Assembly (NCBI GenBank): GCA_963829355.1
Contig: CAWHHZ010000008.1
Coordinates: 97,075-161,074, forward strand
Length of the DNA: 64,000 bases
Source: an uncultured Acidobacteriota bacterium
GTDB taxonomy: Bacteria; Acidobacteriota; Thermoanaerobaculia; Gp7-AA8; JAHWKK01
Direction of reading: 5' to 3'
The translations under genes were made by a program, and so were the position numbers. The notes under the pieces were generated by a model. That model saw nothing but the letters and a program-made list of their open reading frames with translations. It did no database searches and was not told the origin of the DNA. Positions 1,309 through 43,737 of the stretch are shown here, one piece after another; positions within the stretch are counted from its first letter, which is position 1; the number at the start of each line of letters is the position of its first letter.

Positions 1309-2492
1309 CCCTCCCTGAGCCCGGTGTCCCATTCAGTTGGGGCGGTGATGAAAGAACGGTCGAGGTCGCGGACCGAGGCACATCCGAGGAGCTTCATGGT
1401 ACGCGTGATGTCGGTGCGCAGGATATCGATCGCCCGTGTCACGCCCGCCACTCCCGCCGCACCGAGTCCGTAGGCGTATGCGCGCCCGATCAGGACGGCT
1501 TGCGCACCGAGGCAGAGCGCCTTCACGACATCGCTGCCGCGCCGGATTCCGCCGTCGACGAGCACCTCGATCCTTCCATCCACGGCGGCAACGATCTCCG
1601 GCAGAATCCGCAGCGTTGGTGCAACCCCATCGAGTTGACGACCACCATGATTGGAGACGACGACGGCGGAGGCGCCGTGCTCGATCGCGCGCCGTGCGTC
1701 GTCAGCCGAGTGAGCTCCCTTCGCGATGATCGGACCCTGCCAGGCCTCTCGAATCCACTCGAAGTCATCCCATGAGACCATCGCCGATTCGAGCGCGGCG
1801 GAGACGTCCGCATACGGCATCGGACCATCCTCGAGCTCGATGTTGGGGAAGCTCATCAGACCGCCGTCCGCCAGAAACGAGGCGAGCCAGCGCGGACGTG
1901 CGAGGAACTGAGAAACGTGCGGGAGCATCGTGAACGGCGCTCCCGACACGAGCTCTCTCACTCCGTTGCGGATGTCGCGCTCACGCATCCCCGCGACGGG
2001 AGTATCGATCGTGACGACGAGCGCCGTGCAGCCGCACGCTTTCGCGCGCTCGATCGCGGCGCAGGCGACATCACGACCGCCAATGATGTAGAGCTGATAC
2101 CAGAGAGGTCCGCGAGTCGCCGCCTTCACGTCTCGCACAGCGCATCCGGAGAGCGTCGAGAGAGTGTAGATCGTGCCCGCCTCGCCTGCCACTCGTGCCG
2201 CGACCTCCTCACCTCGGGGATAGAACATCCTCGAACTGCCGACGGGCGCAAGGATGATGGGAATCTCGATATCGGTGCCGATCACGCTCGTACCGAGGTC
2301 GCAACTCTCCGTCGCGACGGCTGAGCGCGGGCGGAACATGACGTCATCGAAGACGCGGGAGTTCTCCCGCATCGTCCACTCTGCATCCGCGCCACCATCG
2401 ATGTAATCAAACACTGCGCGAGGAAGACGCTTCTTCGCAAGGCGTCTCAAATCCGCGATGTTGACTGCGTGGGTGCTGTCGATCCGGGCCAT
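1305..2492 (-). CDS. FMN-dependent alpha-hydroxy acid dehydrogenase (L-lactate dehydrogenase / glycolate oxidase family)
   Basis: 395 aa. Shows the family hallmarks 'RLPRAVFDYIDGGA', 'ILAPVG', 'LSTLS', 'NHGGRQLDG' and a C-terminal TIM-barrel FMN-binding region. Confidence 0.8.
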   Translation of the reverse strand: MARIDSTHAVNIADLRRLAKKRLPRAVFDYIDGGADAEWTMRENSRVFDDVMFRPRSAVATESCDLGTSVIGTDIEIPIILAPVGSSRMFYPRGEEVAARVAGEAGTIYTLSTLSGCAVRDVKAATRGPLWYQLYIIGGRDVACAAIERAKACGCTALVVTIDTPVAGMRERDIRNGVRELVSGAPFTMLPHVSQFLARPRWLASFLADGGLMSFPNIELEDGPMPYADVSAALESAMVSWDDFEWIREAWQGPIIAKGAHSADDARRAIEHGASAVVVSNHGGRQLDGVAPTLRILPEIVAAVDGRIEVLVDGGIRRGSDVVKALCLGAQAVLIGRAYAYGLGAAGVAGVTRAIDILRTDITRTMKLLGCASVRDLDRSFITAPTEWDTGLREG

Positions 2493-2668
2493 GTGCCGCG
2501 TGTTTTCCCTGAAGTGATTCTAACGGCATCGTGCCGATCTCGAGAATGTGACGTCGCAGCGGAGGCGACGGTACACCGAGCCCGGAGGTGAGCGTTCAAT
2601 TGACGGCGTCCGGAAGGTCGGACGATAATCGGCGATCCACAATATGTGCTCCAAACCAGGAGGTTTCG

Positions 2669-3586
2669 ATGAGATCCGTCCGTGTGTCGTGTCTGTCCCT
2701 GCTCATTGTTCTCATGGCTACCCTGGGCGTCGTGGGTGCTGACGCCGAAGAGTGTGGGTGGCTGCCGGTCGAACGGTTGAACGAAGCGTTCCCCGATCAG
2801 GCGCCATGGTCGACGATGGTCGGCGGCTCGATCGGCTCATGCAAGTTTCTCGGGAGCGGCTTGCCTCACCTCTTCTCCGCGACTCAGATCGTGAAGGCGA
2901 CGCCGAAAGAAGCTGAGGAGTACGTCAGCGCTCTGCGTGAGGGCATGAAGGAGAATTACGAGGTGACCGCAGCGCCGGAGCTCGGTGAGCTCGCCTTCCG
3001 CTACCGACCGCGCCCGGAGGTCGATGACAGCGGGCGTGCCGTCTTCTTCGTCGGACATCGAGACAGGGTCGTCGTGATGTCGTCGCTCAATTTCCAGAAG
3101 GCGATCACGGAGGAGCAGATGGTCGCGGCGCAGCCTCTCATTCACGCCGCACTCGCTCTGGCTGATGACGAGAAGGCGATCGAAGCCGCGACGAGTTGCC
3201 CCTGGTTCGACGAGACGGTTCTCGATGAGCTGTTCGGCGGTGCTTCCTACAGTGAGAATGTCTTCGGCGAAACGAGTTGTATGGCGAACGTCGACACGCG
3301 CGTGCTCATGGTCAAGATCCTCGAGACGGATAATCCCGCGGGGCTCATTGAATCGATGAGCAGCCTTGCAGGGGGTTCGTGCACGAGCGAGAGGTTGCCA
3401 GGCCTGGCCGGAGCGGCGGTGCTGGAGTATGCCTGCTCGAGCGGTAATCCACGAGCATCGGTGCGGCTGGCTGCCGGTGCCGCGATGATCGAATACACCT
3501 TCGCTCCCGGAGAGGAACCGACAGCTGAGGAGCGGGCTCTTCTGATCGAGCTGGCGCGGCATGCTCTGAAACGCGCCGGCGGCTGA
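2669..3586 (+). CDS. secreted hypothetical protein (Cys-containing)
   Basis: ORF 2588..3586. The likely start is the internal Met, which gives the signal peptide 'MRSVRVSCLSLLIVLMATLGVVGADA'. No recognisable domain. Confidence 0.4.
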   Translation: MRSVRVSCLSLLIVLMATLGVVGADAEECGWLPVERLNEAFPDQAPWSTMVGGSIGSCKFLGSGLPHLFSATQIVKATPKEAEEYVSALREGMKENYEVTAAPELGELAFRYRPRPEVDDSGRAVFFVGHRDRVVVMSSLNFQKAITEEQMVAAQPLIHAALALADDEKAIEAATSCPWFDETVLDELFGGASYSENVFGETSCMANVDTRVLMVKILETDNPAGLIESMSSLAGGSCTSERLPGLAGAAVLEYACSSGNPRASVRLAAGAAMIEYTFAPGEEPTAEERALLIELARHALKRAGG

Positions 3587-3742
3587 AGCTGCGGGAGCGG
3601 ATACCGCAGCTTGCCAGAGATCATGCGCCAGTCACTGCCCGGTCGCACGAAGATCCTCTCATCTCCGGTGACGGATGAGGCGCCCGCGCACTCCGGCGAG
3701 AAACGTGAGGTAGTAGCCGAGAACGATTCCACCGTGTTCAGC

Positions 3743-3811
3743 GACAATTAGACCTGCGGGCCAACGACAACTAGAACTGCGGGTCAACGACAATTAGATC
3801 TGCGGGGTCGG
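3743..3811. repeat. 3 tandem 23-bp repeats (GACAATTAGACCTGCGGGCCAAC-like); possible IS21-type multiple terminal repeats
   Basis: Direct reading gives gacaattagacctgcgggccaac / gacaactagaactgcgggtcaac / gacaattagatctgcggggtcgg, head to tail. They lie about 60 bp upstream of a truncated transposase-like HTH ORF. Confidence 0.8.
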
Positions 3812-3869
3812 ATCTCCACAGAACGACGCCGGGGTGATCGCGTAGAGTCCCCTCTCCGAAGGGAGGGCG

Positions 3870-4031
3870 ATGAAGTCACGCCGGCAAGTGGAGACACTGA
3901 TGAAAGAGTTGAGTGAGGGAGCGACGCTGGAGAGAGCGGCGCTGCGAGCGGACATGAGCGAGAACACGGCTCGCCGCTACCGTAATGGAGCCCCACCGCA
4001 GGGATCGCGGCCGGTGGAACGGGCGGGTTAG
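3870..4031 (+). pseudogene. IS21-family istA-like transposase fragment (N-terminal HTH only, 53 codons)
   Basis: ORF 'MKSRRQVETLMKELSEGATLERAALRADMSENTARRYRNGAPPQGSRPVERAG' fits the pattern of IS21 IstA N-terminal HTHs ('..G.si..IA...g.sE.TvrRYl...pPp'). It then terminates. It is preceded by the 3x23-bp tandem repeats, which would fit an IS21 left end. Confidence 0.4.
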
Positions 4032-4038
4032 GAGCCGG

Positions 4039-4272
4039 CTACTTAGTCGCGGATTTCTTTTCGGGAAGGGCCGAGATGACTGAGCGGAGGAACGTGTTTA
4101 CCGACTCGGCCGAATCGAAGACTTCCGCCACGTCGGGATCCAAGACCACTGCGACGGAGCCCTTCTCGAACTCCGCAGCGAAGCGGTTCGGTTTCGACTT
4201 CGAGTAGTCAAAGTCGTACTCATCGCGTATCTCGTCGGATCGTTCAGCGTTCCTCGTATCTTCGTCGCTCAT
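4039..4272 (-). CDS. brnA: BrnA antitoxin (RHH-type, BrnT/BrnA system)
   Basis: 77 aa with '...YDFDYSKSKPNRFA...GSVAVVLDPDVAEVFDSAESVNTFLRSV', typical of BrnA. ATGA start/stop overlap with upstream brnT. Confidence 0.7.
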   Translation of the reverse strand: MSDEDTRNAERSDEIRDEYDFDYSKSKPNRFAAEFEKGSVAVVLDPDVAEVFDSAESVNTFLRSVISALPEKKSATK

Positions 4273-4514
4273 GAGCAGTCACTTCTCTGGTTGAAAACAG
4301 CCGAATGCTGTTGGTTCTTTCCGTGAAGCATACCCGCAGGAGGCGTCCGCCTCGAATGACCGACGATGATCTCTCGCGACTCGCCCTCGGAATGATCGGG
4401 ATCATGATGAATGCGGGCGAGAGAATCGCCGAAAACAGTCAACGCCTCGGCGAAGGTTACTGAATGATCCCTGAGGTTCAGCGCCGCCTTTCCCGGATCC
4501 CACGTAAATTTCAC
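4269..4514 (-). pseudogene. brnT: BrnT toxin (DUF497), disrupted by a 1-nt frameshift
   Basis: The N-terminus 'MKFTWDPGKAALNLRDHSVTFAEALTVFGDSLARIHHDPDHSEGESREIIVG' matches BrnT. The conserved C-terminus ('GRLLRVCFTERTNSIRLFSTREVTAHERRRYEER') is readable only in the +1 frame from about codon 53. GTG start. Confidence 0.65.
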
Positions 4515-4558
4515 GCGGCGAGTCTACCTCGGAGAAACTGGAGCCCCTGACGGTAGAG

Positions 4559-4657
4559 CTGAGCCGCCAGCGCACGCCTCAGCAATGGTGCAAGATTGAG
4601 CAGTGGCAGCGCGTGCGCTGGCCGGCTCGAGCGACTTGTTATGCGGCCGTAGTTCAG
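4559..4657. repeat. 98-bp direct repeat copy 1 flanking hicAB; contains a 17-bp-stem hairpin (GAGCCGCCAGCGCACGC ... GCGTGCGCTGGCCGGCTC)
   Basis: About 93% identical to 5150..5248 over about 98 nt. The internal inverted repeat is read directly from the sequence. Confidence 0.85.
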
Positions 4658-4869
4658 ACCGCGATCCGCTCGACGGTAGACTGAGGCTCCGGAATTGGAT
4701 CTCCGTCCTCGCGAAGGCCTTCGAGGTGAAATTCGATCGCCTCGCGGATCAACTGGAGAGTTTCTTCGCGGGTCTCACCGACCGCAACGCAGCCGGGAAG
4801 ATCCGGTACGTAGGCGCCGAATCCTGTTTCGCTCGGCTCGACAATGACCACGTATTCCATTTCGATCAC
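4654..4869 (-). CDS. hicB: HicB-family antitoxin (UPF0150)
   Basis: 71 aa with 'YVVIVEPSETGFGAYVPDLPGCVAVGETREETLQLIREAIEFHLEGLREDGDPIPEP', the HicB N-terminal-domain signature. Confidence 0.7.
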   Translation of the reverse strand: MIEMEYVVIVEPSETGFGAYVPDLPGCVAVGETREETLQLIREAIEFHLEGLREDGDPIPEPQSTVERIAV

Positions 4870-5138
4870 CTCTTCTTCAGCCCCGCCTGCTTCAAAATGC
4901 TGTTCAGCGTCCCTGGCGGAACATCGAGACTTTCTTTCCCTGCCACTGTAACCGTTCCCGGCTTGGTGGAATGCCTGAACTGACGATGGCTTCCTCTGGT
5001 TCTAGCCCGTACACGAACCAGCGCCGAGGCGGCGGAGAGTCGTGCGGTTCCAGGCGCGCGAAGGCCTCCGTCATGATTTCTCGAACCTTCAACTCGAGGA
5101 AAGATACCAGCTTCGAGGCCAGCGTGCAGCAGGCGCAT
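4866..5138 (-). CDS. hicA: HicA-family mRNA interferase toxin (true start probably internal, giving about 60 aa)
   Basis: The C-terminal 50 aa 'RTRGSHRQFRHSTKPGTVTVAGKESLDVPPGTLNSILKQAGL' match HicA ('GSHHQFKHP.KPG.VTVPHPKKDLP.GT..SILKQAGL'). Classic hicA-then-hicB order with a 4-nt overlap. Confidence 0.65.
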   Translation of the reverse strand: MRLLHAGLEAGIFPRVEGSRNHDGGLRAPGTARLSAASALVRVRARTRGSHRQFRHSTKPGTVTVAGKESLDVPPGTLNSILKQAGLKKR

Positions 5139-5149
5139 AACGGTCGTGG

Positions 5150-5248
5150 CTGAGCCGCCAGCGCACGCCCCAGCAATGGTTCAAGATTGAGCAGTGGTAG
5201 CGCGTGCGCTGGTCGGCTCGAGCCACTTTGTTATGCGTCGTTGTTCAG
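5150..5248. repeat. 98-bp direct repeat copy 2 flanking hicAB
   Basis: See copy 1 (4559..4657). Confidence 0.85.
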
Positions 5249-5689
5249 CGCCGGCTGAAACTCGACGACAGCATCATCTCAGATTCGACGGGGATGTTCC
5301 CATTAGATGCAGGCTCGAACCGCCACCGTTTGAGCGCCTTCATAGCCTTGGCTCATTCGTCGTCTTCTCTGTCCGACAGATCGTGTCGGTACAGACGACG
5401 ACAAACCCGTCTCGCGGCCGCTGTGCTGTCGGCCGGACTGTGCACCGCAAGAGGGGCGGTTCAGGACGTGGCACACCATCGTAGTCTTCACGTCCTCGCG
5501 CGGGCCACTGGAACGGGATGACCTGTGAAAGAGCTCAAATATAGGTTTTCGGATGCCTTCGACCGCTAGGGAGAACTTCTGGTCCTTTCGCTGCAACGTC
5601 CTGGCCGTCTCCAGCATCTGGAAACGGCTGGGAGTGAAGATCGAAATCACTGCGACCTCGGGGACCAGGTCCTACGGTATCTATGCCTC

Positions 5690-7169
5690 TCAATGTCGCG
5701 CAGGACGCTGCCTGGCACCTCGCTCGTCCAGGACGAGTGTCGGCGTACCGATCGGGAGGATCTGCAGCGACTTCAGAAATTCGATCACGTCGTCCTGCTG
5801 GCTCGGGTCGAGATCGACGAAAGCATCTCTCGAGTCACGGGCATCTCCCCCGTGAAAGAGGATGGCATCAGTCAGCGTCGTCAGATCGCCTCGGTGTCCG
5901 TACGGGGCACTGCTGCCTGCGTCCCACAGCTTTCGGGTCAAAAACTCCTCGAGTGGGACCCCGCCCTGCATCACCTGTTCGTTGCAGAAGTGAGTCAGCT
6001 CATCGTCACACAGATTGTGTCGCTTCAGGTCCGTATACGCACGCACACGCGCCTTTCCGTCCGGCATCCTCTCGAGTCGCGGCAACTCACCCTCGCTCGT
6101 CAGGTCGAACGCGATCAACGCGTCCACGTCCTCGGGTCGCAGGTTTCCGGGAGGGTTGTACGGATTCGGTTCGCTGAACACTGGAGTGTCGAGCACCATC
6201 TCGGGGACGTGACAACTGCCGCACGAGATGCGCTCAAAGGTACTCTCGCCACGGATGATCGCCTCGGCTCGCAGCCGGTCATCCGGAATGAACTGCCCCG
6301 GTACGTTCATCGACGCCTGAAAGATCGTTGCGGCGGTGATGTCCCCCACCGTCAGCTCGTCGTAGACCCCATCCTGATCGAAGTCGTCCGTAGCGGTGCG
6401 CTGCGCCCCGAAGCGCTCCACCGCCTGCATACCGTGATGATGGTTGTACGCGTTATTGCTGAATTCTCGAATCGAAACGACCACACCCTTCTGGTGAAAT
6501 GGTCGGACGATCAGGTCCGTGTTCACACCTTCCACGGCGGTCGTGTCGACAGTTCCGTCAGGATATGCCGTGATCGATCCGAACGACACGCCCTTCGGCA
6601 TCAGTTCACTCGGTCACGGCTGTGCCGGTCTGTTTCGATTCCGCAAGCGCATTCTCACGGATCGCGATCATCTCGGTCGTCATCTCTCTCGCGAGCATCT
6701 CGATCGCGCCACTGCCCTGCATGCCGAGGGTGTTGCGCTCGTCGGAAAACTCCGGGCTCACCGACTCTGTGATGGGATCGAGGGTCTGCGCCAGAACGAA
6801 CACGTTCGCCACGATGTCGCCAGCTCCGCCGGCCACTGGATCGTTGTGGCATCCGGCGCAGGAGTTGGCTTCGGGTGCCGATGTCCGAATGAAGGCAGGT
6901 GCACTGCCAGGCAGACGCGCCAGTCCACCCCCCGTCGTTCCTGGCCGGCCCTGCCCATCGAACCGATTGAACTTGGCCACGAAGAGCGCCTTGCCAGCCT
7001 CCATCATCGAGCGGAGATTCAACGCTCCCGATTCGAGCTCACGCTGGTCCAGGTGCTCCTCAATCACTGGACCATCACCGATACTCGCCCCAAACAGCGA
7101 CAGCCCCGTTCCGATGAAGGCGATCAACACAAAACACACGACCAGCCTCTGCGTTCCCACAATACGCAC
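5690..7169 (-). pseudogene. di-heme cytochrome c / thiol oxidoreductase-like protein (DUF1111 family), split by a frameshift near 6602-6605
   Basis: N-terminal ORF 6606..7169 has a signal peptide and the first CxxCH ('CAGCH'). C-terminal ORF 5690..6601 has the second ('CGSCH') and is in a different frame 4 nt downstream. Together they make one roughly 490-aa DUF1111-type protein. Confidence 0.6.
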
Positions 7170-7533: not shown

Positions 7534-9678
7534 GTGAGAGATTCGATCAAAGTGAGGCGCCGCTTATTGATTGTCGCCGGACTGCTCTCGATGACAGTCG
7601 CCATTGAGGCACAACCGCAGGCGGGGTCGGTCGATGCGGTCGTGAAGGCGAATCCCGATGCTGCTCCTTCAGTCGTCGTAACACTATCCCGAGACTGCCA
7701 CGAGCGCGCATCGTGCCGCCTGCTGTCGACCGCAAGCCACCATCCCGCTATTCTGCGACGCGCCTCAGACGTTCGTTACCGGGTTCAGGAATCGGAAGAT
7801 CCACAGACCACTATCGCCGTGCATGATCCGAGTGGCGAGCTGATCGCCAGTTGGAAAGGCGATCAGGATCCGGAATCGCTGCGCCGCATCTGGAACATGA
7901 TCGAGAACGCCCGCGAGTATCTCGTGGCGGCTGGTCGGAGTGCTCTGGAAGGCGACGTTGAGAAAGCGCTGCAACAGAGAGCTCTTGCATCATTCATGTT
8001 GGGAAATCTCGAGGCGGGCGAAGCTCGCTTGCAGCAGATGCTGCAAGGCTCACCCGAAAGCCGCCAGATCGCGTCGATATGGTCAATGCGTCTTGGGCTG
8101 CGGGAGGGCACCACACCAGATGAAGCCTTCCTGCTCGACCTAATCGAACGTGCCGAGACTGATTACGTCCGCTTCGAGTCGTGGATGCTCCTCGGCGAGC
8201 AGAGAGCTCGCGATGAACGGAACGAAGCCGCCATCGATGCGTTCCGTCAGGCCATGAAAACCGCCGGCACCGATGACGAGCGGAAGGTGGCGTGGCGTTC
8301 CCTCAGTGAGCTGACCGGCAGCAGCGGGTCCGTCGGCGGCCTGGGAGCATCGGGGAGTCTGATCGCGGGACAGCGCATCGTGCATTCCAGGTGGACCGGC
8401 AGCGACATCGAGTCAGTCACATATCGGCTGGATGGTCGCGACGTTGCGCGGGCCGAGACCGTACCGTATGTGGCTTCGATCGACTTTGGCCCTCTTCCGG
8501 AGCGACATGTCCTCGAAGTGTCAGCGCTCGATCCCAGAGGCAGCCAGGTCCGGAGCGAACAGCTCATCATCAATGGCTCGAGCCACGACCCTTCGATCCG
8601 CATGACCGTCTCCGCGGAGCAACCCGGCACCGATCTGTTCGAGGTCTCGCTCGTGGTCCGGATACCGGAGGACAGAACCGGCACTGTGCTTCTCGAGCTG
8701 GATGGACGCGTCATCCAGAAGTTCGACGCGCCTCCCTATATCACCAGGATCGGGGCTGACAGAAGCGGACCGGCCGTCCTGCGAGCCATTCTTCGACTGG
8801 AAGACGGCTCGGAGACCGAGGATGTGCGCCTCCTCAATGTCGAAACTCTCTCGATGCGCAGCGACGTACATCGCGTTGAAGTTCCCGTCTACTCGGATTC
8901 GCAGATCCGGGCCGATGAGCTGGTGGTGCTGGAGAACGGTCGCTCCAGACCGGTAAAGCGGCTGATCGCCGCGGGCGAATCACCTTTGATCGTCAGTCTT
9001 CTCATCGATGCTTCTTCCAGCGTGGCCGGAAACGTCCTCGATCTCGAGGAGGCCGCTCTGAGCTTCGTCGACTCACTCAATCCCGAGGATCAGGTGATGG
9101 TGGTTTCCTTCAACACGAATGCGCGAATCACGTTGTGGCCAACGAGCGATCGTATGAAGATCCGCCATGCAATCTGGAGCCTCCGAGCCGGAGGTCTGAC
9201 CGCTGTGAACGACGCGATCATTTCCTCACTGCTTCACATGCAGCCGACCGGGTCGAGGCGTGCCATCCTGGTGATTACGGATGGACACGACACCGCCAGT
9301 CTCTTCTCTTTTCACGAGATCGCAACCGTCGGCGAACGGTATGCCACACCCATCTATGCGGCAATCATGAATCCTCAGATTCCTGCGGGTCCACGAAAAC
9401 ATCGGATGCCTCGATCATCACCCGTGGTCGCCGCCCAGAATCAACTTTCTAGAATCGCAAGAAGATCCGGCGGTGCCGCACTGCAGCTCTGGTCCCCCTC
9501 TGACCTCTCGTCCCTCTCCCGAAAAATCAGCGATGATCTGGCAAAGCAGCATCTGCTCGTTTACGAGCCTGCTACAACGGGTCCATCCCTTCGATCGCTC
9601 GAGGTCTCCCTGAACACTGGCAAACGCCTTCGCGCACCCGAAGTTGTCACCTTCTCTCGGGAGGGGGCGGAAGAGTAA
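7534..9678 (+). CDS. secreted VWA-domain protein with N-terminal TPR-like region
   Basis: 714 aa with a signal peptide. The C-terminal VWA domain has the MIDAS motif 'LLIDASSSVAG...NDAIISSL...ILVITDGHD'. Confidence 0.6.
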   Translation: MRDSIKVRRRLLIVAGLLSMTVAIEAQPQAGSVDAVVKANPDAAPSVVVTLSRDCHERASCRLLSTASHHPAILRRASDVRYRVQESEDPQTTIAVHDPSGELIASWKGDQDPESLRRIWNMIENAREYLVAAGRSALEGDVEKALQQRALASFMLGNLEAGEARLQQMLQGSPESRQIASIWSMRLGLREGTTPDEAFLLDLIERAETDYVRFESWMLLGEQRARDERNEAAIDAFRQAMKTAGTDDERKVAWRSLSELTGSSGSVGGLGASGSLIAGQRIVHSRWTGSDIESVTYRLDGRDVARAETVPYVASIDFGPLPERHVLEVSALDPRGSQVRSEQLIINGSSHDPSIRMTVSAEQPGTDLFEVSLVVRIPEDRTGTVLLELDGRVIQKFDAPPYITRIGADRSGPAVLRAILRLEDGSETEDVRLLNVETLSMRSDVHRVEVPVYSDSQIRADELVVLENGRSRPVKRLIAAGESPLIVSLLIDASSSVAGNVLDLEEAALSFVDSLNPEDQVMVVSFNTNARITLWPTSDRMKIRHAIWSLRAGGLTAVNDAIISSLLHMQPTGSRRAILVITDGHDTASLFSFHEIATVGERYATPIYAAIMNPQIPAGPRKHRMPRSSPVVAAQNQLSRIARRSGGAALQLWSPSDLSSLSRKISDDLAKQHLLVYEPATTGPSLRSLEVSLNTGKRLRAPEVVTFSREGAEE

Positions 9679-11186
9679 TGATCGGCGCGGCGCTGGTACT
9701 CGCGCTTCTCCTTACTGACCGCGCCGGGCCGGCTGCGGACGAACGCTTCTCCGAATCGATCTCGGTGACTCGCTACGTCGTGGAAGTCGGAGTCACCGAT
9801 CATGCGGGGCGCGTTGCGGGAGAGCTCGGTCCTTCCGACTTCACCGTCGAAGTGAGCGGAATCCCCGCGAGCGTCGAAAGCGCCTTGTGGTTTGGCTCAG
9901 ACGGTGAGGCCGGGGCTCCGGAACAAGGACGTCACCTCCTGATTTTTCTCCAGTCGGACTTCGCCCGCAATCGAGCGCGCATGCTCGGACACATGACCTT
10001 CGTCAATTCGTTCGCACCTTCAATCGTGGCAATGCTGCGCCCGCACGATGAAGTCGCCGTCGTCTCGTTCGATTCGCATCTGCGCGTGCTGTCGGATTTC
10101 ACGAACGATGGGGACCGGATACTGGCTGCCGTCAAACGCTCTCTCAGCATCGGTGCAGGCGAGGCGGTGGTGGAAGCCGCGTCGGACGGAAGTCTCTCCA
10201 CTGCACTCGAAACGACGAAGAGATCAACCGACGTCGAAGGCGCTCTACTCGACATTGCTCATGCACTGCAGAAGGTGAACGGCGAGAAGGTCGTGATCCT
10301 CGCCGGGTGGGGGTTCGGGGAGACTCTCTGGCGCAAAGGAGGTGGTTCCGGCGTGACACTTCCGGACGCGTGGGGCCGTGCGGTGAAGATCTTCCAGGAC
10401 GAGCGAGTGAGGATCATCACCGTGAGTGCCGACACGGGTCAGCTTTCATACAGTCTGGCGATGTCCTCACGATCTACCGGTGGCGCGTTCGTTTCCTCTG
10501 CGGCGGGCTTCTCCACTCAGTCACTCGCCGTGATCGAAGGAGTCCTGACCGGCCGCTATGAACTGGTGCTGTCGCTTCCGGAAGCGCTCGAACCAGGAAC
10601 GCATGATCTGATGGTCACGGTCGAGGGAGGCCGGCACGTCGTCGCTCCCGCAACGATCGTGGTTCAGAGCTCCAAGGCGGCGTACAGCGAGTCGATTGCG
10701 CTACTGAACGCGGGTCTCGAAGCAGAAGCACTCGCCGCTCTGCAGCAATGGATCGAGAACGATACCCCTGACTCTGATTCTCTTCGTTCGCATCTGGATG
10801 AGCTGGCTCGGGGGGAACAGTGGCGAAGTGCTCTGGCTGTTGCTCTCGAGTTGGAGCGGCGTCACGAACTCGACGACACGACGACGAGAGAACTGATGCA
10901 GGCACGCGCGGGCGTAGAGCGCGCCGACCGTCTGGCGGCGCAGGAACGAATGACAGCCGCGAGACGTGACTTGTTGGAGGGTTCCAGAGAGCTCGCGAAA
11001 GAGCATCTCGACGAGGCGCTGAGGCTCTTCCCTGACTTCGCCGAGGCTCTCTACGAGCGGGGAATGCTTCTTCTTGCTGAAGGGGCCTTGGAGAGTGCAG
11101 CGATCGATCTCGAGAGGTGTCTGCGCCTGGAACCGGCCGGCATGCATTCAACGGATGTCCGCGCTCTGTTGAAACAGATCCGGTAG
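9678..11186 (+). CDS. acidobacterial-type VWA-domain protein (TIGR03436-like N-terminus) with C-terminal TPR repeats
   Basis: 502 aa. The N-terminal 'FSESISVTRYVVEVGVTDHAGRVAGELGPSDFTVEVSGIPASV' pattern is shared with the 1297-aa gene at 38517. TPR-like helices at the C-terminus. TAATG overlap with the upstream gene. Confidence 0.6.
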   Translation: MIGAALVLALLLTDRAGPAADERFSESISVTRYVVEVGVTDHAGRVAGELGPSDFTVEVSGIPASVESALWFGSDGEAGAPEQGRHLLIFLQSDFARNRARMLGHMTFVNSFAPSIVAMLRPHDEVAVVSFDSHLRVLSDFTNDGDRILAAVKRSLSIGAGEAVVEAASDGSLSTALETTKRSTDVEGALLDIAHALQKVNGEKVVILAGWGFGETLWRKGGGSGVTLPDAWGRAVKIFQDERVRIITVSADTGQLSYSLAMSSRSTGGAFVSSAAGFSTQSLAVIEGVLTGRYELVLSLPEALEPGTHDLMVTVEGGRHVVAPATIVVQSSKAAYSESIALLNAGLEAEALAALQQWIENDTPDSDSLRSHLDELARGEQWRSALAVALELERRHELDDTTTRELMQARAGVERADRLAAQERMTAARRDLLEGSRELAKEHLDEALRLFPDFAEALYERGMLLLAEGALESAAIDLERCLRLEPAGMHSTDVRALLKQIR

Positions 11187-25375: not shown

Positions 25376-27574
25376 TCACCACTGCGCCGCGAGATCGGGA
25401 CGGCCGAGACTTCGGTAGGCCTCGGCGATCATCGCTTTCGTCGAGGGTGATGGGTTGGAGGCCGAGAGGGCACGCATCGTTCGCTCGGCCTCGCCGGCAT
25501 TTCTCTGAAGAAGCTGAATCGCGGCGAGTCGGATGTACGCTTCCCTGTTCTGAGGGAACTCGTCCGCTTCCCGGCGGAACGCTCCCTTCGCCTCGTCGAG
25601 CCGGCCCTGGCGCGCAAGGATGTCTGCTCGGGTGAACGATTCACCAGCAACCCGATCTCCCGGCGTCGACTCCAGTTGTTCGAGGATTGCGAGCGCCTCG
25701 TCGAGACGACGCTGCGCCACCAGCGCCTGCGCGCGGACGACGAGTGCATCATCCCGCGTGGCGCTGTCGGCGAGTGCCGCACCGAGGGCCCCGTCCGCTT
25801 CGGCGGCTCGACCGATCCCGATCAGAGCACGTGCTCGCACCAGCGCGGCACTCGACGGATGCGCATCTTCGCGCGAGATCAGCGTGATCGAGTGCCTCCT
25901 GGAACTGACCCAGCTTCAGATACACCTCTGCAAGAGAGAGAGCTGTTCCCGGGGCGAGCAGCGGTGAAACGTCGATGGTTCTGCGGTACGCATTGACCGC
26001 GTCCTCATACCGGCCCGACAGATCGTACGCGCGGCCGAGAAGGGTCCATGCGTCCGCAAAGGCCGGATTTCGCGACAACGATCTTCTCGAGCGCGACGAC
26101 GGCGCTCGCACTATCGCCCTCCCGGATCGATCGGGTGGCCACCATGTAGGCTTCCAGATCACCGATACGCTCCTTTGGATCTGGCAGGGCGCCATTCGAG
26201 CTCGCACCTCCGCCACCGAGATACCCGAGCGCCGAGAGCTTCGAAGCTTCTTCAGACGAAATCGCGGTCGGAGCGGCGAGCGCGCGATCATACGTCAGCG
26301 AGCTCGTCCCGCATCGACGCGTACGTCCTTCGCTCGCCCGCGAGGATGTTGCGGGCCTCGCCCGGATCGCTCGACAGATCGTACAACTCCGGCGACGGTG
26401 CCTCGATGTAGTGGAACGTCGTGCCGACGAGCGACGCGAGATCGCTCCACCCGAGATGGATGCGCGGGTACATCGTCTCGCTGTAGATGCGACGTTCTTC
26501 AGCGTCGTCATCAGTGAGCAACGAATGCCCTGCGACCGCGGATGGATCGTAATCGAGACCGGCAAGCGTCGCGATCGTGGGAAAGATATCGATCAGTCCG
26601 ACGGGCCGTTCGACTCTGGTCGCCGCCTGCTCGGAACCGGCAAGTTTGACGAACAGCGGAACGTGGATCGCTTCGCGGTAGAGAAAGATTCCGTGCTCGC
26701 TCTCGCCGTGATCACCGAGACCCTCTCCATGATCGGACATGAAGATGATCGTCGCTCCGTCGTAGAGACCGCTCTGGCGGAGATGGTCGAGGAACCGCCC
26801 CACGTAGGCATCTGCCGTGGCAATTTCGCCGTCGTATGGACGGTCGGCGTACGCTTTTGCAAACGGCTCCCCCGGCTCGTATGGGGTGTGAGGCTCGAAC
26901 AGGTGGACGAACAGAAAGAATTGGTCGGAGCCAACTGAGTCGATCCACTCGAGTGCGGACGATACCGTGAGGTCACCGCTTCGCTGGATCTCTCCCACGA
27001 TCGCACCGGGCATACTCTCCATCTCGTCGTCGTAGTGGTCGAACGCGGCTCCGAGACCGGTCTCCTTCCGCAGTACGTATGCCGACACGGCTCCCCCGGT
27101 CATGTATCCCTTTTTCTTCAGCAACAGAGGCAGCGACGGCATCGTCGGATCGAAGCGGTATCCGAGGTTGTTGCGGACTCCAGTCGCCGCGGGGAGCCTG
27201 CCCGTGAGCATCGATACGTGCGAGGGGAGCGTGAGCGGGACCTGCGAGTACGCATTCTCGAACACGATCGAGTCGGCAGCGAGCGCATCGATCGCAGGCG
27301 TCTCGACACCCGTTGCTCCGTAGACCGGAAGATGATCGGCCCGCAGAGTATCGACAGAAATGATAATGACCGGACCGGAGGCGGCAGGCGAGGACACGTC
27401 CTCGCGGCCACAGGCGGACGTCAGGAGAAGCAAGAGGACGAAAGATGAAAGATGAAAGATGAAAGATGAAGGTCGTGGCACTGCGGGGATTTCATTGCTC
27501 ATCGTTATGCCTTCGCTCATAGCTCCGCCTCCATCGCTCCGCTCCGTCCTTTCATCGTTCATCTCATCGTTCAT
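25376..27574 (-). pseudogene. sulfatase-like hydrolase/transferase fused to TPR repeats (paralog of 27614..29701). The sulfatase domain ORF is intact and the TPR half is broken by about 3 frameshifts
   Basis: ORF 26288..27574 is the sulfatase domain ('IIISVDTLRADHLPVYG'). The linker and TPR regions align to the intact paralog but are spread over ORFs 26005..26565, 25749..26291 and 25376..25840 in three frames. Confidence 0.55.
27437..27471. repeat. (GATGAAA)x5 heptamer array, lying inside the signal-peptide codons of the minus-strand sulfatase gene
   Basis: The reverse complement encodes 'PSSFIFHLSSFV' of the ORF 26288..27574 N-terminus. Confidence 0.85.
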
Positions 27575-27628
27575 CTTTCATTCGTTCATCGTTCATCGTT
27601 CATCGTTCATCGTTCATCGTTCGTTCAT
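27550..27628. repeat. (CGTTCAT)n heptamer array (about 6 perfect units plus degenerate units)
   Basis: Direct reading. It overlaps the stop codon of 27614..29701 and the 5' region of 26288..27574. Confidence 0.85.
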
Positions 27629-29701
27629 CACCTGCCGTGCCTCGGCGGCGAGTGAGCGCATTTGCGGATCGTCGTTGGTCTCGATTGCCTGGTTGAGTAC
27701 AGCATCTGCCTCAGTGGCACGTCCCTGTGCGCCAGTGACAAGCGCCAGGTTCACCCATGCCATCCGATGATCGGGAAACGCGGTGACCTCCGCACGGAAC
27801 GCCTGCTCAGCTTCCGGTGTGCGCCGGAGCTGGAGAAGTGCCTGACCGCGACGGAACTCGAGCTCTCGAATCGGAGGCTTCGGACCGCTGGCAGTCTTCG
27901 CTCTCACCTGATTGAGAAGATCGAGCTCACGCGCGATTTCGCCCCGTTCATGCGCGATCAGAGACAGGAGCATGAGCGGTTCCGTACGCGAGGAATCCGC
28001 CGCCGCCGATGCATTCGCTGCTCGTTCGGCGGCCTCGGTATTGCCCCGGGCCATTTCGATTCGCGCGATCAGATCGTTCGCGATCGCAGGTGCGTAATCG
28101 AGCGCGAGCTCGGCATACGTCCTCGCCTCGTCATAACGTCTCATCTCGTACGTGACTGAAGAGAGCGCGAGCGCTGTTTGCGGATTCCCCGGCGACCGCT
28201 CCATCTGGGTCTCGAGGGCGCTGAGGGCCGTCGCGTAGTCTCCCTTCTTTCGGCTCGCCGACGAGATCAGACCCCACGCCTGCAGAAAGTCGGGATTCTC
28301 GGCGACGATCGAGCGTCCGATCTTCAGAGCCTGTTCGAGGTCGCCGCGCTGGAACGCTCCGGCCCCTTTCCCGAACTCAGTGAGGAGACCGATCTTGTCT
28401 TTTGGATCGGGTCGAGAGCCATCAGATGCGGCACTTCCACCACCGAGGTATCCGAGCGACTCGAGCTTCGCCAGATCCTCCGGATCCGCGACGGCTGGCT
28501 CCGAGAAGGGATGCGCAGCGACCGTCGAACGAAGCTGTTCGCGCATCGCCGCCACGAGCCGCCGCTGCTCCGCGGCAATGTTGTCCCGTTCCGCCGGATC
28601 GCGCTGGTAGTCGTAGAGCTCGACCACCGGTGCATCGATCAGGTGGTGACGATTGTCGATCTTCGAGAAGAGCTCGCTCCAGCCGTAGTGGAGCCGTGGA
28701 TAGAACGTCTCGCTGTAGATCGCGCGGTCCGCGGGGATCTCTCCGAGCAGATCGATCCCCTCCGGCTGGTCCGGCGGCTCGATTCCCGTCAGCGCGAGGA
28801 CTGTCGGGAAGATGTCCGTCAGAGACACCGGAGCAGCGACCGTCTCACCCGCGCGTCGATTACCGGGGAGCTTGACGAGAAGAGGAACCTGGATTGCCTC
28901 CCTGTAGAGAAACACGCCGTGCTCGAGCTCCCCGTGGTCCCCGAGTCCTTCTCCGTGATCGGACAGGATGACGATGAGCGACTCCTCGTAGAGGCTCTTT
29001 TCCCTGAGGAAGTCGAGAAACCGGCCCACGATCTCGTCCGACCGCGCGACCTCGCCATCGTAGGCATCGTCGACATCGGTGGCCCACGGTTCAGGCGGGG
29101 TGTATGGATAGTGAGGTTCGTAGATGTGGAGAAACCCGAAGATCTTCCGACCGGTGACTGAATCGATCCAGCCTTCCAGTTTCCCTGCCGACTCCTCGCC
29201 GTTTCTCTGCCACGAGCTGATCGTATCGACCGGCGCCTCGGTCATCTCGTCGTCGTAGAACGAAAAGCCGCGAGAGATGCCGGTATCGCTTCTCAGGACA
29301 TAGCTCGAGACCGCGGCTCCTGTCTGATAGCCACTTCGCTGAAGGATCTCCTGAATCATTGGGAGATCCTCACCGATCGTATAGCCGATGTTGTCGCGGA
29401 CACCGTGCCTGTACGGCTGGGCTCCGCTGAGGATCGTCGTGTGCGATGGCAGGGTCATCGGGACGCTGCTGAATGCACGCTCAAAGAGGATTCCATCGGA
29501 ACGGAATTGATCGATTGCCGGAGTCGCGACGGCGTCGTATCCGTAGACTGGAAGACGATCCGATCGAAGCGTATCGATCGAGATAATGAAGACCGGCGGC
29601 GGCTCGATCACCGTGGCAGGCGCTGGGTCTTCGCCGCCACAGTTGATCAGCAAGGCGAGGATGCTCAACGGCAGGAGCAGAGTGGACAGGCAATTTCTCA
29701 C
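27614..29701 (-). CDS. sulfatase-like hydrolase/transferase with C-terminal TPR repeats (intact copy)
   Basis: 695 aa, GTG start. Lipoprotein-like signal ('LLINCGG'). Alkaline-phosphatase-superfamily N-terminal domain. C-terminal roughly 280 aa are TPR-like. Confidence 0.75.
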   Translation of the reverse strand: MRNCLSTLLLPLSILALLINCGGEDPAPATVIEPPPVFIISIDTLRSDRLPVYGYDAVATPAIDQFRSDGILFERAFSSVPMTLPSHTTILSGAQPYRHGVRDNIGYTIGEDLPMIQEILQRSGYQTGAAVSSYVLRSDTGISRGFSFYDDEMTEAPVDTISSWQRNGEESAGKLEGWIDSVTGRKIFGFLHIYEPHYPYTPPEPWATDVDDAYDGEVARSDEIVGRFLDFLREKSLYEESLIVILSDHGEGLGDHGELEHGVFLYREAIQVPLLVKLPGNRRAGETVAAPVSLTDIFPTVLALTGIEPPDQPEGIDLLGEIPADRAIYSETFYPRLHYGWSELFSKIDNRHHLIDAPVVELYDYQRDPAERDNIAAEQRRLVAAMREQLRSTVAAHPFSEPAVADPEDLAKLESLGYLGGGSAASDGSRPDPKDKIGLLTEFGKGAGAFQRGDLEQALKIGRSIVAENPDFLQAWGLISSASRKKGDYATALSALETQMERSPGNPQTALALSSVTYEMRRYDEARTYAELALDYAPAIANDLIARIEMARGNTEAAERAANASAAADSSRTEPLMLLSLIAHERGEIARELDLLNQVRAKTASGPKPPIRELEFRRGQALLQLRRTPEAEQAFRAEVTAFPDHRMAWVNLALVTGAQGRATEADAVLNQAIETNDDPQMRSLAAEARQVMNER

Positions 29702-38516: not shown

Positions 38517-41500
38517 GTGCACTCTCATGACCGAGACTCTGACACTTGCGGAATTGAGGAATCGTGCTGCCGCTTCCGGAGAGATGAGATGAGGCAAATG
38601 GAGAGAATCATGTGCGTCCTTCCGGCCGTCCTTCTATGGGCGGTCTCGCTGCCGGCTCAGGAGCAACCCTCCTTCCGCGACAGTGTCGAGGTGCGCGTGA
38701 TCAATCTCGACGTCGTCGTGGAGGACGCGGCCGGGAAACCCGTCACGGGACTCTCCCCCTCCGATTTCGAGATCCTCGAGAACGGAAAGGTCCAGCCGAT
38801 CACGAATTTCGCGGAGTATCAATCGGGCACGTTCGTCGAGCCTCCCGAGGATGCTCCGGCAGCAACGCAGTACGTTCGTCCGGCGGAAACGCGCCAGCCG
38901 CGAACCATCGTGTTTCTGATCGATGCATTCAATCAGACGCCCAACGTGCGGGAGGAGCTGTTCACCCGCATCCGTGAGTTCACGCGTGACGGGCTGGAGC
39001 CGGGAGACCGGGCCGCCCTCTTCAATTGGCGCAAAAGCATCATGACCGTGGTGCCTCTCACTACCGATCTTCGTCTGATCGACCGGGCTCTATCTCAGAT
39101 GGGGGGGATGCAGCTCCCTGCCGAGGATCAGGCGATGGACGGAATCGTTCAGTTTCTCGAGGAGGCTGACGCGTTCGAGCAAGGGTTGGGCGACGCGGGA
39201 GCCTCATCTCTCGCGGCCCAGATGGAAACGACGATCCGCCATTGCGCCGAGGAGTACCTCTCGGAGATGGAAGGCAAGAGTATCGCCCTGCGCAGCATGA
39301 TTGATTCGCTGGCGGGAATCGAGGGCCGGAAAATACTCGTCTACGTCGCCGGACGCTTCCCCGCCGACACCGCCACGTACTGCCAGTCGATCCTCCGGAC
39401 CCCGGCGCTGGGTCCGGCGAACTTCACATTCCGTGCGGGGACTTTCAGCACCGATCGCCTCGTGGACAAAGTGACGGACGCCGCGAATGCTGCCGGCGTC
39501 ACGTTCTACCCCATCCGGCCGAGAACGAGTGCGCGCCGCACGACAGCGGTCGAGTACACGACCGAGTCGAGCACCGGAGCCAGCGAAGAGCTGGGCGACA
39601 CGCTCGTGATGATGAACGATGCCGACGCGCTCGCCACACTCGCCGAGAAAACCGGAGGCCGTCTCGCGGTGGGAGATCACCTCATCGACGAGCTCCTCCC
39701 TTCCATCCTCTCCGATCTCGACAATTACTATTCACTCGGCTATCGCGCGACCTCGGATGGAGGTGATCGGCAGCGAGACCTCACCGTCCGGATGAAGAAC
39801 CGTTCTCTCCGGGCCAGGGCCCGCGACGCCTTCGTCGAAAAGTCGCGACTCTCAGAAATCAAAGACCAGTTGATCGCCAATCTGTTCGGGGAGCCCCGAA
39901 AGGGTGACATCGAGCTCGATGTCATCGTCGGAGAGCCGGTCCCAGGCCGTCGTGGCCGCTCGACGCTTCCGGTGGAAGTGCGCATTCCGCTCGACCAGCT
40001 CATCTACGAGGGGCAGACTCCCGTCAGTGAGGTCCGCCTCCTCTCCGCCGCCGGAACGACTCCGGGATCCACGACCGAGATCTCCGAGACCGTGAAGCGC
40101 ATCGAGAAACCACCGGCCGACCTGGACGCTCCTTTCATTACCTGGAAAGTCGACCTCGTGCTGCCGGAGGGAGGAACGAAGGTCGCGTTCGGCGTCCTCG
40201 ACGAGGTCTCCGGCCTTGTTGGATTCGTGACAGTCGATCGGACGACCGAATCGATCGAGCGCGCTGAGGCCGCGGCCCTGGCAGGTCTGAGCGAGTGGGA
40301 ACGGGTCCTCGAAAAAGGCCACCGCAAGGGTAAGCCGCTCCTCGTCTACTTCCGGCCGGAGCCATGCTATCGCCGTGAAGGGTTCAACAAGATTCCGATC
40401 TGTGACCAGTTCGAGAGTGACGTTCTCAGCCATCCGGAAATTGCGCAGCGTCTCCAGAGCTTCGAGCTCATTCGCTGGACACCGGGGGTGGGACTCGCCG
40501 ACTGGCCGAAAGACCGGGCCGGTCTCGCCTTGATGAGAATCGACGGACAGCCGATCGTGCAGTGGACTGATCTTCTCGACGGCGCCAATCTCGCGAGGGT
40601 TCTCGACACGCTGATCCCGCACGCGCGGGAGTTCGTACGCATCAACGAACTGACCCGGCTGCACCGGATCGATGAGGCCGATCTGGCCACGGCGATGCTC
40701 AAGATCAGGTTCGGACTGCGGCGTGAAGCAATCGAGACACTCGAACGTCTGAAGAGAGAGAATCCGGAATTTCGCGAGATCTCGTCAGTGCGGCTCGCGT
40801 ATCTGGATGCCGCCGAAAACAGAGGCCGCGGCCTTCGGGAGCTTCACACCTTGATCCCGAAGCTTTCGGATCCTACTGCAGTCGGTGAAGGGTGGCTTGC
40901 GGTCGCTGCGCTCACCTCAGGGGAGGAGAAGCTTCAGGCTCTGCGCTCGGCTCTGGAAATCTCGCCTGACGGCAGCTCGCAGAAGATCATCGCGCAGAGC
41001 GAGCTCGATGCGCTGGTTGCTCCTGAGCCAGACCAGTCCGTCATTCAGGTCGCACCGGTACCGATCGCATCGGGTCGCACCGAGATCCGCACCGTCGTGC
41101 GATCGTCGAAGGTCGACTCGGTCGAGTTCGTACTCGACGGCCGCTCCATCGCGAAAGATGAAGCCGCTCCGTTTCGCGCGAGCGTCGATCTCGAGCGTCT
41201 GCCGGCGAGGCATGATCTGAAGGTCATCGCTCGGGACCCCCGCGGTTCCGTGATCGGAGAAGACGTCCTCGTGCTCAATGGCAACAGCGACTCGCTCTGG
41301 GTGAGATTCATCGCGCCCGAGCTCGATCAGGCCTCAGGCGAAACGCCGGTGGAGCTCGTGCTGCAGGTTCCGCAGAACCAGATGCTCAGATCGGTGAAAA
41401 TTGATCACGACGGCGATGTCATCGCGCTCGAGGGACCGCCCTACCGCACGAACGTCACGATTGACCCCGCTGCGGGAATCTCCGTGCTTCAGGCGACGGT

Positions 41501-42656: not shown

Positions 42657-43220
42657 TCAGCAGCCGGGTACGCGCCGGTAGTGCATGGCGACCGCGCCGT
42701 TGCGGAGCGGCGTCGCTGAAACCAGCTCGAGCCGTCGCCTGCCGGGCAGCCCACTCTGGTACAGGGTCGGCCCGTGACCGGCGATTCTGGGGTGGACGAG
42801 AAATTTGTATTCGTCGATCAGATCCAGCCGGTCCAGTTCGGTCGCAAGCCTGCCGCTTCCGAGGAGCACGCCGGCAGGGGTCGTGTCCTTGAGTTTCTGC
42901 ACGCTCGCACGCAGGTCGCCGGTGATGTGGTGGCTGTTGGACCACGGGAAGTCAGTTCGGGTCGACGACACCACGTACTTCGGCTTGGCCTCCAGCTTGA
43001 CCGCCCACTCGCGCATCGCCGGCGGCGCCTCTTCGTCACCGCGGGCGACCGCCGGCCAGTAGGCCTCCATCATCTCGTAGGTGACGCGACCCCAGAGCAT
43101 CGCCCCGCCCTCGTCCATGAGGCGTGTGAAGAATGCGTGTGTTTCGTCGTCGGCGATCCCCTCCCGGTGGTCGACGCAGCCGTCCAGGGTGAGGTTGAGG
43201 CTGAAGGTCAGAAGTCCCAT
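42657..43220 (-). CDS. dihydrofolate-reductase-family protein (RibD C-terminal-domain type)
   Basis: 'MGLLTFSLNLTLDGCVDH...MLWGRVTYEMM...VLLGSGRLATEL...LIDEYKFLVHPRIAGHGPTLY', the YwjB/RibD_C pattern. Confidence 0.7.
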   Translation of the reverse strand: MGLLTFSLNLTLDGCVDHREGIADDETHAFFTRLMDEGGAMLWGRVTYEMMEAYWPAVARGDEEAPPAMREWAVKLEAKPKYVVSSTRTDFPWSNSHHITGDLRASVQKLKDTTPAGVLLGSGRLATELDRLDLIDEYKFLVHPRIAGHGPTLYQSGLPGRRRLELVSATPLRNGAVAMHYRRVPGC

Positions 43221-43737
43221 GCGTATTGACTCCGGCGTGTGCCCGGATCAGGTGCACCAACGCGATCGACATCTGTCATCGGGCCTACCGCTTCTTCCCC
43301 CCGACGCCAGGCACTGCCGTGACTTGGGTAATTCCTGTCTACCTTGCGGGCGGGCATGCTGGTCTCCTGTGCCTCGGAAGTGTGTCGGCCAACGATCCCC
43401 CGTTCACCGGCGCGGATACGCACCGGAGACGGTGAATTCATGCGTAATGGTACAGCGTGCCCGCGTCCGGTGGAACGGGTCGGTTGGCGGCAGGAGCGCT
43501 CAGGAGACGAGACCCACCACGACCATGAGCGCCCCGGCCACCGTGACAACCGCGCGAGTGTGCGACCGAGCGGAGCAAACTTTTTCTAAGGGCCTGCGCA
43601 TTCTTGACTGGATCTCGCACGAAAGGTGTGCAGATCTTTCCTCTCCGCCCGCCCATTTCTGGCAACCCGATTGCACATGTTATTAGGCATAACGGAGGCA
43701 GCAAGCCTCCCCTCATCAGAACGAAAGGAGAACAGAA

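Follow-up and report, generated by a model that had tools for sequence, protein, structure and literature searches.

What kind of element leaves a toxin–antitoxin (TA) gene pair enclosed between two hairpin-forming direct repeats of about 100 nt? The question is raised by a 64,000-nt stretch of DNA from an uncultured Acidobacteriota bacterium (GenBank assembly GCA_963829355.1, contig CAWHHZ010000008.1, forward-strand positions 97,075–161,074), referred to here as the window and numbered from its first letter. A hicAB pair lies between the repeats, a brnTA pair adjoins it and a fragment of an IS21-family insertion sequence (IS) follows. The evidence presented below indicates that positions 4003–5236 are very probably what remains of an integron cassette array with no integrase close by, i.e. 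a cluster of attC sites lacking integrases (CALIN). From left to right, the islet comprises the following features.

3735–3815, plus strand: left terminal inverted repeat region of an IS21-family element, starting 5′-TG, with three 23-bp direct repeats at 3738–3806
3870–4013, plus strand: istA′, the first ~47 codons (helix-turn-helix, HTH) of an IS21-family transposase (model NF033546, phmmer)
4003–4036, minus strand: putative attC remnant of the brnTA cassette, with R″ (TCCTAAC, 4027–4033) and the L″ arm (CCCGTTCCACCGG, 4011–4023)
4039–4272, minus strand: brnA antitoxin gene, intact, 77 aa (weak Pfam BrnA_antitoxin match, E=0.064; in-frame alignment with contig L064)
4244–4514, minus strand: brnT toxin pseudogene in two frames (Pfam BrnT_toxin over profile positions 1–48 of 77)
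4545–4644, minus strand: putative attC of the hicAB cassette (fold; covariance model R1, 96.9 bits, the site being a seed of that model)
4654–4860, minus strand: hicB antitoxin gene, intact, 68 aa (Pfam HicB_lk_antitox, E=3.5e-14)
4866–5092, minus strand: hicA toxin pseudogene, TTG start at 5092 (alignment with four relatives)
5135–5236, minus strand: putative attC of the preceding cassette (generic scan, fold, model R1)

Anatomy and relatives of the direct repeats

A complete integron is composed of intI, encoding a tyrosine recombinase with an IntI-specific extra domain, the attachment site attI and the promoter Pc, next to an array of cassettes. IntI binds the folded bottom strand of an attC site (which would here be the plus strand) and cuts in the conserved AAC of R′; recombination of attC with attC excises a circle, and recombination of attC with attI inserts it. 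The attC sites range from roughly 57 to 141 nt in length, and their structure is conserved more than their sequence. The published anatomy comprises the inverse cores R″ and R′ with conserved AAC/GTT, an unpaired central spacer, extrahelical bases near L″ and a variable terminal structure (PMC5027507).

The repeated unit of the window spans 100 nt (4558–4657 and 5149–5248), with an identity of 86% without gaps and 91% (92/101) with gaps, one indel being placed on each side. A first-pass annotation, made by a model from the sequence alone, had described 98-bp direct repeats of ~93% identity; the repeats are indeed present, as are the other features that it listed. The 17-nt stem arm that it had pointed out occurs exactly twice in the 64 kb. 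The right site reaches beyond the limits drawn in that annotation, as R′ (GTTATGC, 5135–5141) pairs with R″ (GCATAAC, 5230–5236), the cores pairing over 8 bp and being followed by an unpaired spacer of 3–4 nt and a 23-bp L stem broken by two single-base bulges. Both bulges are on the same arm, separated by 6 nt, and consist of C and A on the minus strand, corresponding to G and T on the plus strand. Folded as single-stranded DNA, the right copy attains −41.7 kcal/mol (z = −6.8 versus shuffles). The left copy shares the L stem and R″ (GCATAAC, 4638–4644) with the right one, its R′ reads GTCAGGG (4545–4551), and it folds less well (z = −2.4 versus shuffles) because the outer helix is broken. In attC_aadA7 the extrahelical bases of the bottom strand are G16 and T23 (PMC5027507), and the presence of G and T on the plus strand of the window repeats thus identifies this strand as the recombinogenic bottom strand. 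In the window, the array is read from the minus strand, as are brnA, brnT, hicB and hicA. By sequence and predicted fold, the two ~100-nt repeats appear to be integron attC sites.

The inner-stem pattern was scanned over 185,579 species representatives and returned 58 loci, which are mostly chance hairpins, with two true relatives that both sit in one Acidobacteriota metagenome-assembled genome (MAG); the genome of the window itself is not among the loci. One of the two relatives, L043 of this MAG, carries four co-oriented attC sites, the first and second of which flank a brnTA cassette, and its BrnA resembles that of the window. When eight sites were aligned, 14 of the 28 stem pairs exhibited compensatory changes, and a home-made covariance model (R1) was built from these eight, with the window's own sites and the four L043 sites among the seeds. 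Across the window R1 matches only its three seeds, with nothing else at E < 0.1. The right attC scores 110.6 bits on the minus strand compared with 41.5 on the plus strand, and the third seed (43382–43493, minus strand, 87.5 bits) is a solitary attC of another sequence type between a 58-aa open reading frame (ORF; 43500–43676) and a RibD_C gene (42657–43220).

Outside the seed DNA, R1 detects sites straight after hicB in L060, L062 and L063, nine sites on one strand of L064 behind genes for HicAB (twice), MazE/PemK, DUF2442 and Unstab_antitox, at least eight significant sites in L080, and two to four sites, spaced ~400–650 bp apart, in each of five short metagenome contigs (L067–L071). The nine L064 sites are near-identical though they stand behind unrelated cassettes; the attC sites of one array are commonly alike. 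In the window as in L064, L043, L080, L060 and L067–L071, the site lies 3′ of each cassette, co-oriented and in arrays, and TA cassettes recur several times per array in the relatives L064, L073 and L080.

A MAFFT alignment of 31 sites supports the shared fold. The stem positions are paired in 89% of cells, against at most 40% when the partners are slid; 21 of the 31 stem pairs are compensatory, with changes on both sides, and the covariation of 0.387 (0.133 in shuffles) is reached by none of 500 shuffles. AAC and GT are invariant, the third T is present in >90% of sites, and the bulged A, a T on the bottom strand, hardly varies, the two same-arm bulges 6 nt apart being found in essentially all members. 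Spacers of 3–4 nt and a length of 100–104 nt are likewise shared, with terminal loops that vary in sequence and length. An Acidobacteria-specific attC model has been published (Ghaly et al. 2021, PMC8352920). The finding of true relatives, among the 185,579 representatives, only in an Acidobacteriota MAG is in line with the chromosomal attC sites of that type, to which the window sites would belong by this likeness. Three acidobact_VWFA (TIGR03436) proteins encoded in the window likewise point to an Acidobacteriota host.

The hicAB and brnTA cassettes and the IS21-family remnant

The hicA–hicB–attC unit recurs with 82–96% identity in L060–L063 and with 75% identity in L064, and its neighbours differ each time. 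An attC follows hicAB in each of L060–L064 (cut by the contig end in L061 and L062), whereas the site before hicAB is of a different, short type in L062 and is missing from L060 and L061. In L062 and L064, homology starts exactly at TTATGC, the G|TT crossover point of the preceding R′, and the hicAB cassette of the window therefore extends from T(5140) to 4551, giving 590 nt that end in its own attC, with the downstream boundary at G(4551)|T(4550). Its recurrence in these five contexts and its sequence boundaries mark hicAB as an independently mobile cassette bounded at G|TT. The earlier suggestion that hicAB moved as a cassette via a structured site is in agreement with both the attC anatomy and the occurrence of the same cassette in several contexts.

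The two genes of this cassette have fared differently. The ATG at 4860 is the true start of HicB, a protein that recurs with 100% identity in L060–L063, and the 25 nucleotide differences between hicB and these four relatives are all synonymous. The first-pass annotation took hicA to be intact too, a view that the alignment does not uphold, as a patch at 5003–5074 holds 35 extra nt (12+11+12) relative to four close relatives, in which HicA is an intact protein of 63 aa beginning (TTG)KVREIIRRLEKDGWALVRTRGSHRQF. The 11-nt piece replaces the DGW motif and shifts the frame, placing the N-terminal helix and DGW out of frame with the GSH-containing remainder, and both Pfam and PDB matches start only at the GSH motif and cover the C-terminal two thirds. 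As a 90-aa ORF from an ATG inside R′ holds these two thirds, residual HicA activity might conceivably remain. The 35-nt patch could not be an assembly artefact. Its first 12-nt insertion (GGCCTTCGCGCG, 5057–5070) resembles a palindromic stretch in hicB (GAAGGCCTTCGCG, 4710–4723), a likeness that could be chance or the trace of a templated patch. In an intact type II HicAB system, HicA combines a double-stranded-RNA-binding-like fold with the catalytic GSH motif. Compared with such systems, the toxin-then-antitoxin order is retained, with genes that overlap or adjoin, and HicB scores above the Pfam gathering score, HicA doing so over its C-terminal part only; the window HicB is the short form (68 aa) without a DNA-binding domain, and, unlike in intact HicAB, HicA is out of frame.

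Upstream of the right attC, ~450 nt (5237–5689, minus strand) separate this site from a di-haem oxidoreductase gene and presumably represent the decayed body of the preceding cassette. The ORFs of this region have no Pfam match, R1 finds no attC in it, and neither blastn nor tblastx detects similarity to the hicAB cassette. The latter result led to the rejection of a decayed second copy of hicAB in this region, and a further attC remnant at 5385–5530 was rejected for want of a fold or an R1 match; an L″-like 13-mer with two mismatches at 5505–5517 is indistinguishable from chance.

A more distant hicAB lineage (P0066, L072–L079; HicB 75% identical) occurs in many contexts with no R1-type attC. 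It carries another conserved 3′ element of ~80 nt, and immediately beyond GGTCGGCCA the contexts no longer share homology; L072 has a tandem duplication of part of this element, next to an IS110-family transposase. In L081 an IS3-family element (1155–2084) stands directly after hicB, at the place expected for attC. L080 and L081 both carry brnTA downstream of hicAB with other genes between, so that the cassette order is as in the window, the sequences being only distantly related.

The brnTA pair of the window is best read against L064, where positions 25–629 hold a homologue (71% identity) with an intact BrnT, a 78-aa BrnA and a complete attC at its end. In three-frame translation, the N-terminal half of the window BrnT lies in ORF 4269–4514 and the C-terminal half in ORF 4244–4405, with a 2-nt gap at about 4348/4349 relative to the intact L064 protein, and brnA is intact; a frameshifted toxin beside an intact antitoxin is what had been proposed. 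Directly after the brnA stop follows the attC remnant, the R″ of which aligns with R″ of the intact L064 brnTA attC, and the 13-mer of its L″ arm (CCCGTTCCACCGG) has its only other exact copy in the attC at 43.4 kb (43467–43479). The complementary L′–R′ arm is absent, with no fold and no R1 match in the 3940–4045 region. From these sequence features brnTA appears to be the next cassette of the same array, running from 4550 to about 4005, with an attC that keeps only the R″–L″ arm; the first-pass annotation had missed that brnTA is itself a cassette with a truncated attC. The cassette starts TCAGGGGC, compared with TTAGGTGGC (TTAGG) in the L064 homologue, and a T-to-C substitution among the opening bases of brnTA thus accounts for the GTC in R′ of the hicAB attC.

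As for type II BrnTA systems, in which BrnA follows the ribonuclease BrnT, the order of toxin and antitoxin is kept, with BrnT above the Pfam gathering score and BrnA matching weakly; unlike in intact BrnTA, the window BrnT is out of frame. Exact look-ups of the BrnA and BrnT′ sequences returned no identical record, and thus no independent assembly for the brnT frameshift. Since other genes of the window are split, the assembly may carry indel errors, and the 2-nt frameshift in brnT, taken alone, could be an artefact.

Members of the IS21 family encode IstA (HTH plus DDE) and the helper IstB, and have multiple terminal repeats and 5′-TG…CA-3′ ends. The core pattern of the three 23-bp repeats is found three times, where chance predicts 0.06 occurrences. 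L065, a contig that carries an IS21 IstA relative, shows the same terminus TGTTCAGCGACgATTAGACCTGC, a second repeat and then GGGGTCGG, with two repeat units where the window has three; as the flank in L065 is unrelated, the IS end is placed at 3735. Of the 53 IstA codons that were annotated earlier (ORF 3870–4031), the first ~47 are genuine, whereas the last ~6 are the antisense of the attC arm. NF033546 (transpos_IS21) is the only NCBIfam match of this 53-aa ORF (E=0.053, profile positions 2–42), and it drew nothing useful from Pfam, from tblastn against plasmids or from a word-indexed protein search. Phmmer over 1.84 billion representatives returned 18 matches to the 47 residues, most of them N-terminus to N-terminus at 51–68% identity, and these relatives themselves match NF033546 (best P0128, E=2e-22). 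The relatives read on as …PRTYRTRxDPF where the window diverges, so that IstA homology stops at ~4010–4013.

At this junction (~4005–4013) the interior of the IS abuts the interior of the attC site, which marks it as a deletion endpoint rather than an insertion site. The 5′-TG end, the three left-end repeats, the ~60 bp to the istA start and the N-terminal HTH of IstA are all shared with the IS21 family, and with the same end in L065 they substantiate the truncated IS21 left end that had been recognized earlier. In contrast to complete members, the fragment measures ~280 bp and lacks the DDE domain and istB, and neither a right end in the 64 kb nor another copy of the IS end in the window was found. 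Judged on this content, it is a remnant and not a transposition-capable member.

Class of the element and competing explanations

No tyrosine recombinase was detected in the 64 kb, either by a motif scan or by tblastn with an Xer/IntI-like recombinase (no match at E<0.5), a search that covered 59 kb on the upstream side of the array (above 5236), and none was found in L060–L064 or L067–L071 either. In the same Acidobacteriota MAG as L043, L046 carries at 2331–4345 a tyrosine recombinase and an IS91-family transposase ~80 nt downstream of a brnTA-cassette attC, in the same orientation. This recombinase was rejected as intI, being paired with the IS91 transposase and reaching 198 bits on the integron-integrase model, below the cut-off of 265; the recombinase of L079, a weak Xer-like fragment, was rejected as well.

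With no integrase in the window, the element is filed as a CALIN and not as an integron. CALINs, defined by at least two attC sites without a nearby intI, are common (Cury et al. 2016, PMC4889954). The window holds two complete sites 591 nt apart, within the 4 kb allowed, and one half site. It resembles described CALINs in that same-orientation attC sites lie within 4 kb, neither intI nor an intI pseudogene is nearby, an IS is associated, and the cassettes are unrelated to those of clinical integrons; it differs in being very small and visibly decayed, and in having been called with a home-made model and not with IntegronFinder (PMC4889954). Chromosomal integrons typically contain TA cassettes that have promoters of their own, and such cassettes stabilize the integrons (Richard et al. 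2024, PMC13108822). As in sedentary chromosomal integrons such as the Vibrio cholerae superintegron, type II TA pairs form single, co-oriented cassettes with their own attC (PMC13108822). In contrast to the TA cassettes there, HicA and BrnT of the window are both inactivated and the host belongs to the Acidobacteriota, not to Vibrio; with both toxins inactivated, the cassettes can no longer penalize their own loss. A sigma-70 promoter scan of the islet found none.

Several observations weigh against this assignment. R′ of the left attC reads GTC in place of the near-universal GTT and its R″/R′ outer helix is unpaired, so that the pairing of the cores is lacking at this site. R′ of the bottom strand is given as 5′-RYYYAAC-3′ (PMC5027507), from which the R″ core GCATAAC departs at one position (a purine at Y). 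R1, which took the place of the curated attC model of IntegronFinder, was seeded with the window sites. In the DNA examined, no intI stands beside any member of the attC family, the arrays running off contig ends, and the link to IntI thus derives from anatomy and the literature. The cassette upstream of the right attC has neither a recognizable gene nor a 5′ attC. Finally, genes are split elsewhere in the window, namely the di-haem oxidoreductase gene at 5690–7169 (two ORFs) and a sulfatase-TPR gene at 25376–27574 (three ORFs, near an intact 695-aa paralogue at 27614–29701), which reflects either many pseudogenes or assembly indel errors.

The strongest alternative is a system that still works: an intI gene in another part of the genome, beyond the 64 kb, would supply the IntI that excises and reinserts hicAB, and the islet would be a live satellite array that arose through rearrangement or secondary-site insertion. 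In its favour, the structure of the right attC is perfect, half of the known CALINs lie in replicons with IntI and their cassettes may be mobilized in trans (PMC4889954), and the third attC of the family at 43382–43493 suggests that cassettes are scattered in this genome. GTC at R′ is moreover seen in two independent sites, GTCAGGG at 4545–4551 of the window and GTCAGGC in the L043 site at 3708–3815, the latter inside an apparently healthy, otherwise intact-looking array, and such cores might be tolerated by the integrase of this lineage. Excision of hicAB would, however, need the left attC, with its GTC and its broken R″/R′ helix, and it is the conserved triplet that supplies the micro-homology when strands are exchanged between this and other sites (PMC5027507). 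The signs of neglect, i.e. the truncated next attC, the abutting IS fragment and the two dead toxins, together with the absence of an integrase from the 59 kb upstream, make a live array unlikely, albeit one to be taken seriously.

Far less plausible is a generic palindromic repeat of the repetitive extragenic palindrome (REP), miniature inverted-repeat transposable element (MITE) or terminator kind, flanking hicAB by chance and without any tie to integrons. The repeats are GC-rich hairpins right after stop codons and could therefore act as terminators, and the inner-stem pattern does match unrelated genomes by chance, as the two true relatives among 58 loci illustrate. The family nevertheless has only three copies in the 64 kb, neither repeat matches an Rfam family, no T-tract terminator overlaps either one, and the relatives are found without exception in co-oriented, cassette-spaced arrays. 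The conserved AAC/GTT cores and same-arm bulges are features that terminators or REPs do not need, and cassette homology breaks exactly at G|TT.

Least credible of all is that hicAB insertion produced the repeats, by a long target-site duplication or by tandem duplication of hicAB with a decayed upstream copy: although the repeat runs 11–12 nt past R″, with a TGA whose offset equals that of the hicB stop, the 450 nt upstream bear no similarity to the cassette, hicAB is preceded by a different short attC in L062 and by none in L060 and L061, near-identical attCs stand behind unrelated genes in arrays such as L064, and no transposon is known to make a 100-nt target duplication. The "duplication on insertion" of the first-pass annotation accordingly falls away, the left repeat being assigned to hicAB as its own attC and the right repeat to the preceding cassette.

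On the preferred reading, that of a decayed array without a nearby integrase, the minus-strand order would be the attC of the upstream cassette (5236→5135), hicA′–hicB (5140→4551) and brnT′–brnA (4550→about 4005). Such an array would have lost contact with its integrase, and an IS21-family element would have landed on its distal side; a deletion with endpoints within istA and in the loop of the brnTA attC would then have removed the rest of the IS and possibly more cassettes. R′ of the hicAB attC would have changed from GTT to GTC, and both toxin genes would have become inactive, leaving HicB and BrnA as intact antitoxins. At present the islet most likely has no function, except perhaps the expression of two orphan antitoxins. 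Loss of hicAB could occur via RecA recombination between the 91%-identical attC copies, and IntI supplied in trans could act on the islet, albeit poorly. After the loss of the toxins, HicB and BrnA might be kept by selection as orphan antitoxins that protect the host against the toxins of hicAB and brnTA cassettes, which would circulate abundantly in the integrons of this lineage (anti-addiction), in which case a cell could lose or exchange such cassettes without dying; we consider this improbable.

Integrons and orphan cassette clusters are well described, and TA cassettes are their best-known passengers. The islet is a known kind of element, and the locus adds an example and not a concept. 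It does illustrate that an attC family typical of Acidobacteriota-like soil genomes is recognizable from two repeats in raw sequence, and the 31 curated sites with their model may be used for annotating such MAGs. The islet also represents a natural end state of an array, with the integrase gone, IS-mediated truncation, a mutated core site, dead toxins and intact antitoxins, consistent with the view that TA cassettes stabilize arrays only while the toxin works.

Other features of the window

Left of the islet, a gene at 1018–1308 encodes an encapsulin-associated ferritin-like cargo protein (TIGR04535, E=1e-40), and upstream of it lies a 260-aa ORF (132–914) with no family match. The minus strand at 24313–24391 matches RF00029, a group II intron domain of Rfam, with 58 bits, above the gathering score; as no reverse transcriptase was seen among the neighbouring ORFs scanned with Pfam, this match is probably an intron fragment. 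Finally, three proteins of the acidobact_VWFA family (TIGR03436) are encoded at 7534–9678, 9678–11186 and 38517–42410, the best reaching 293 bits.

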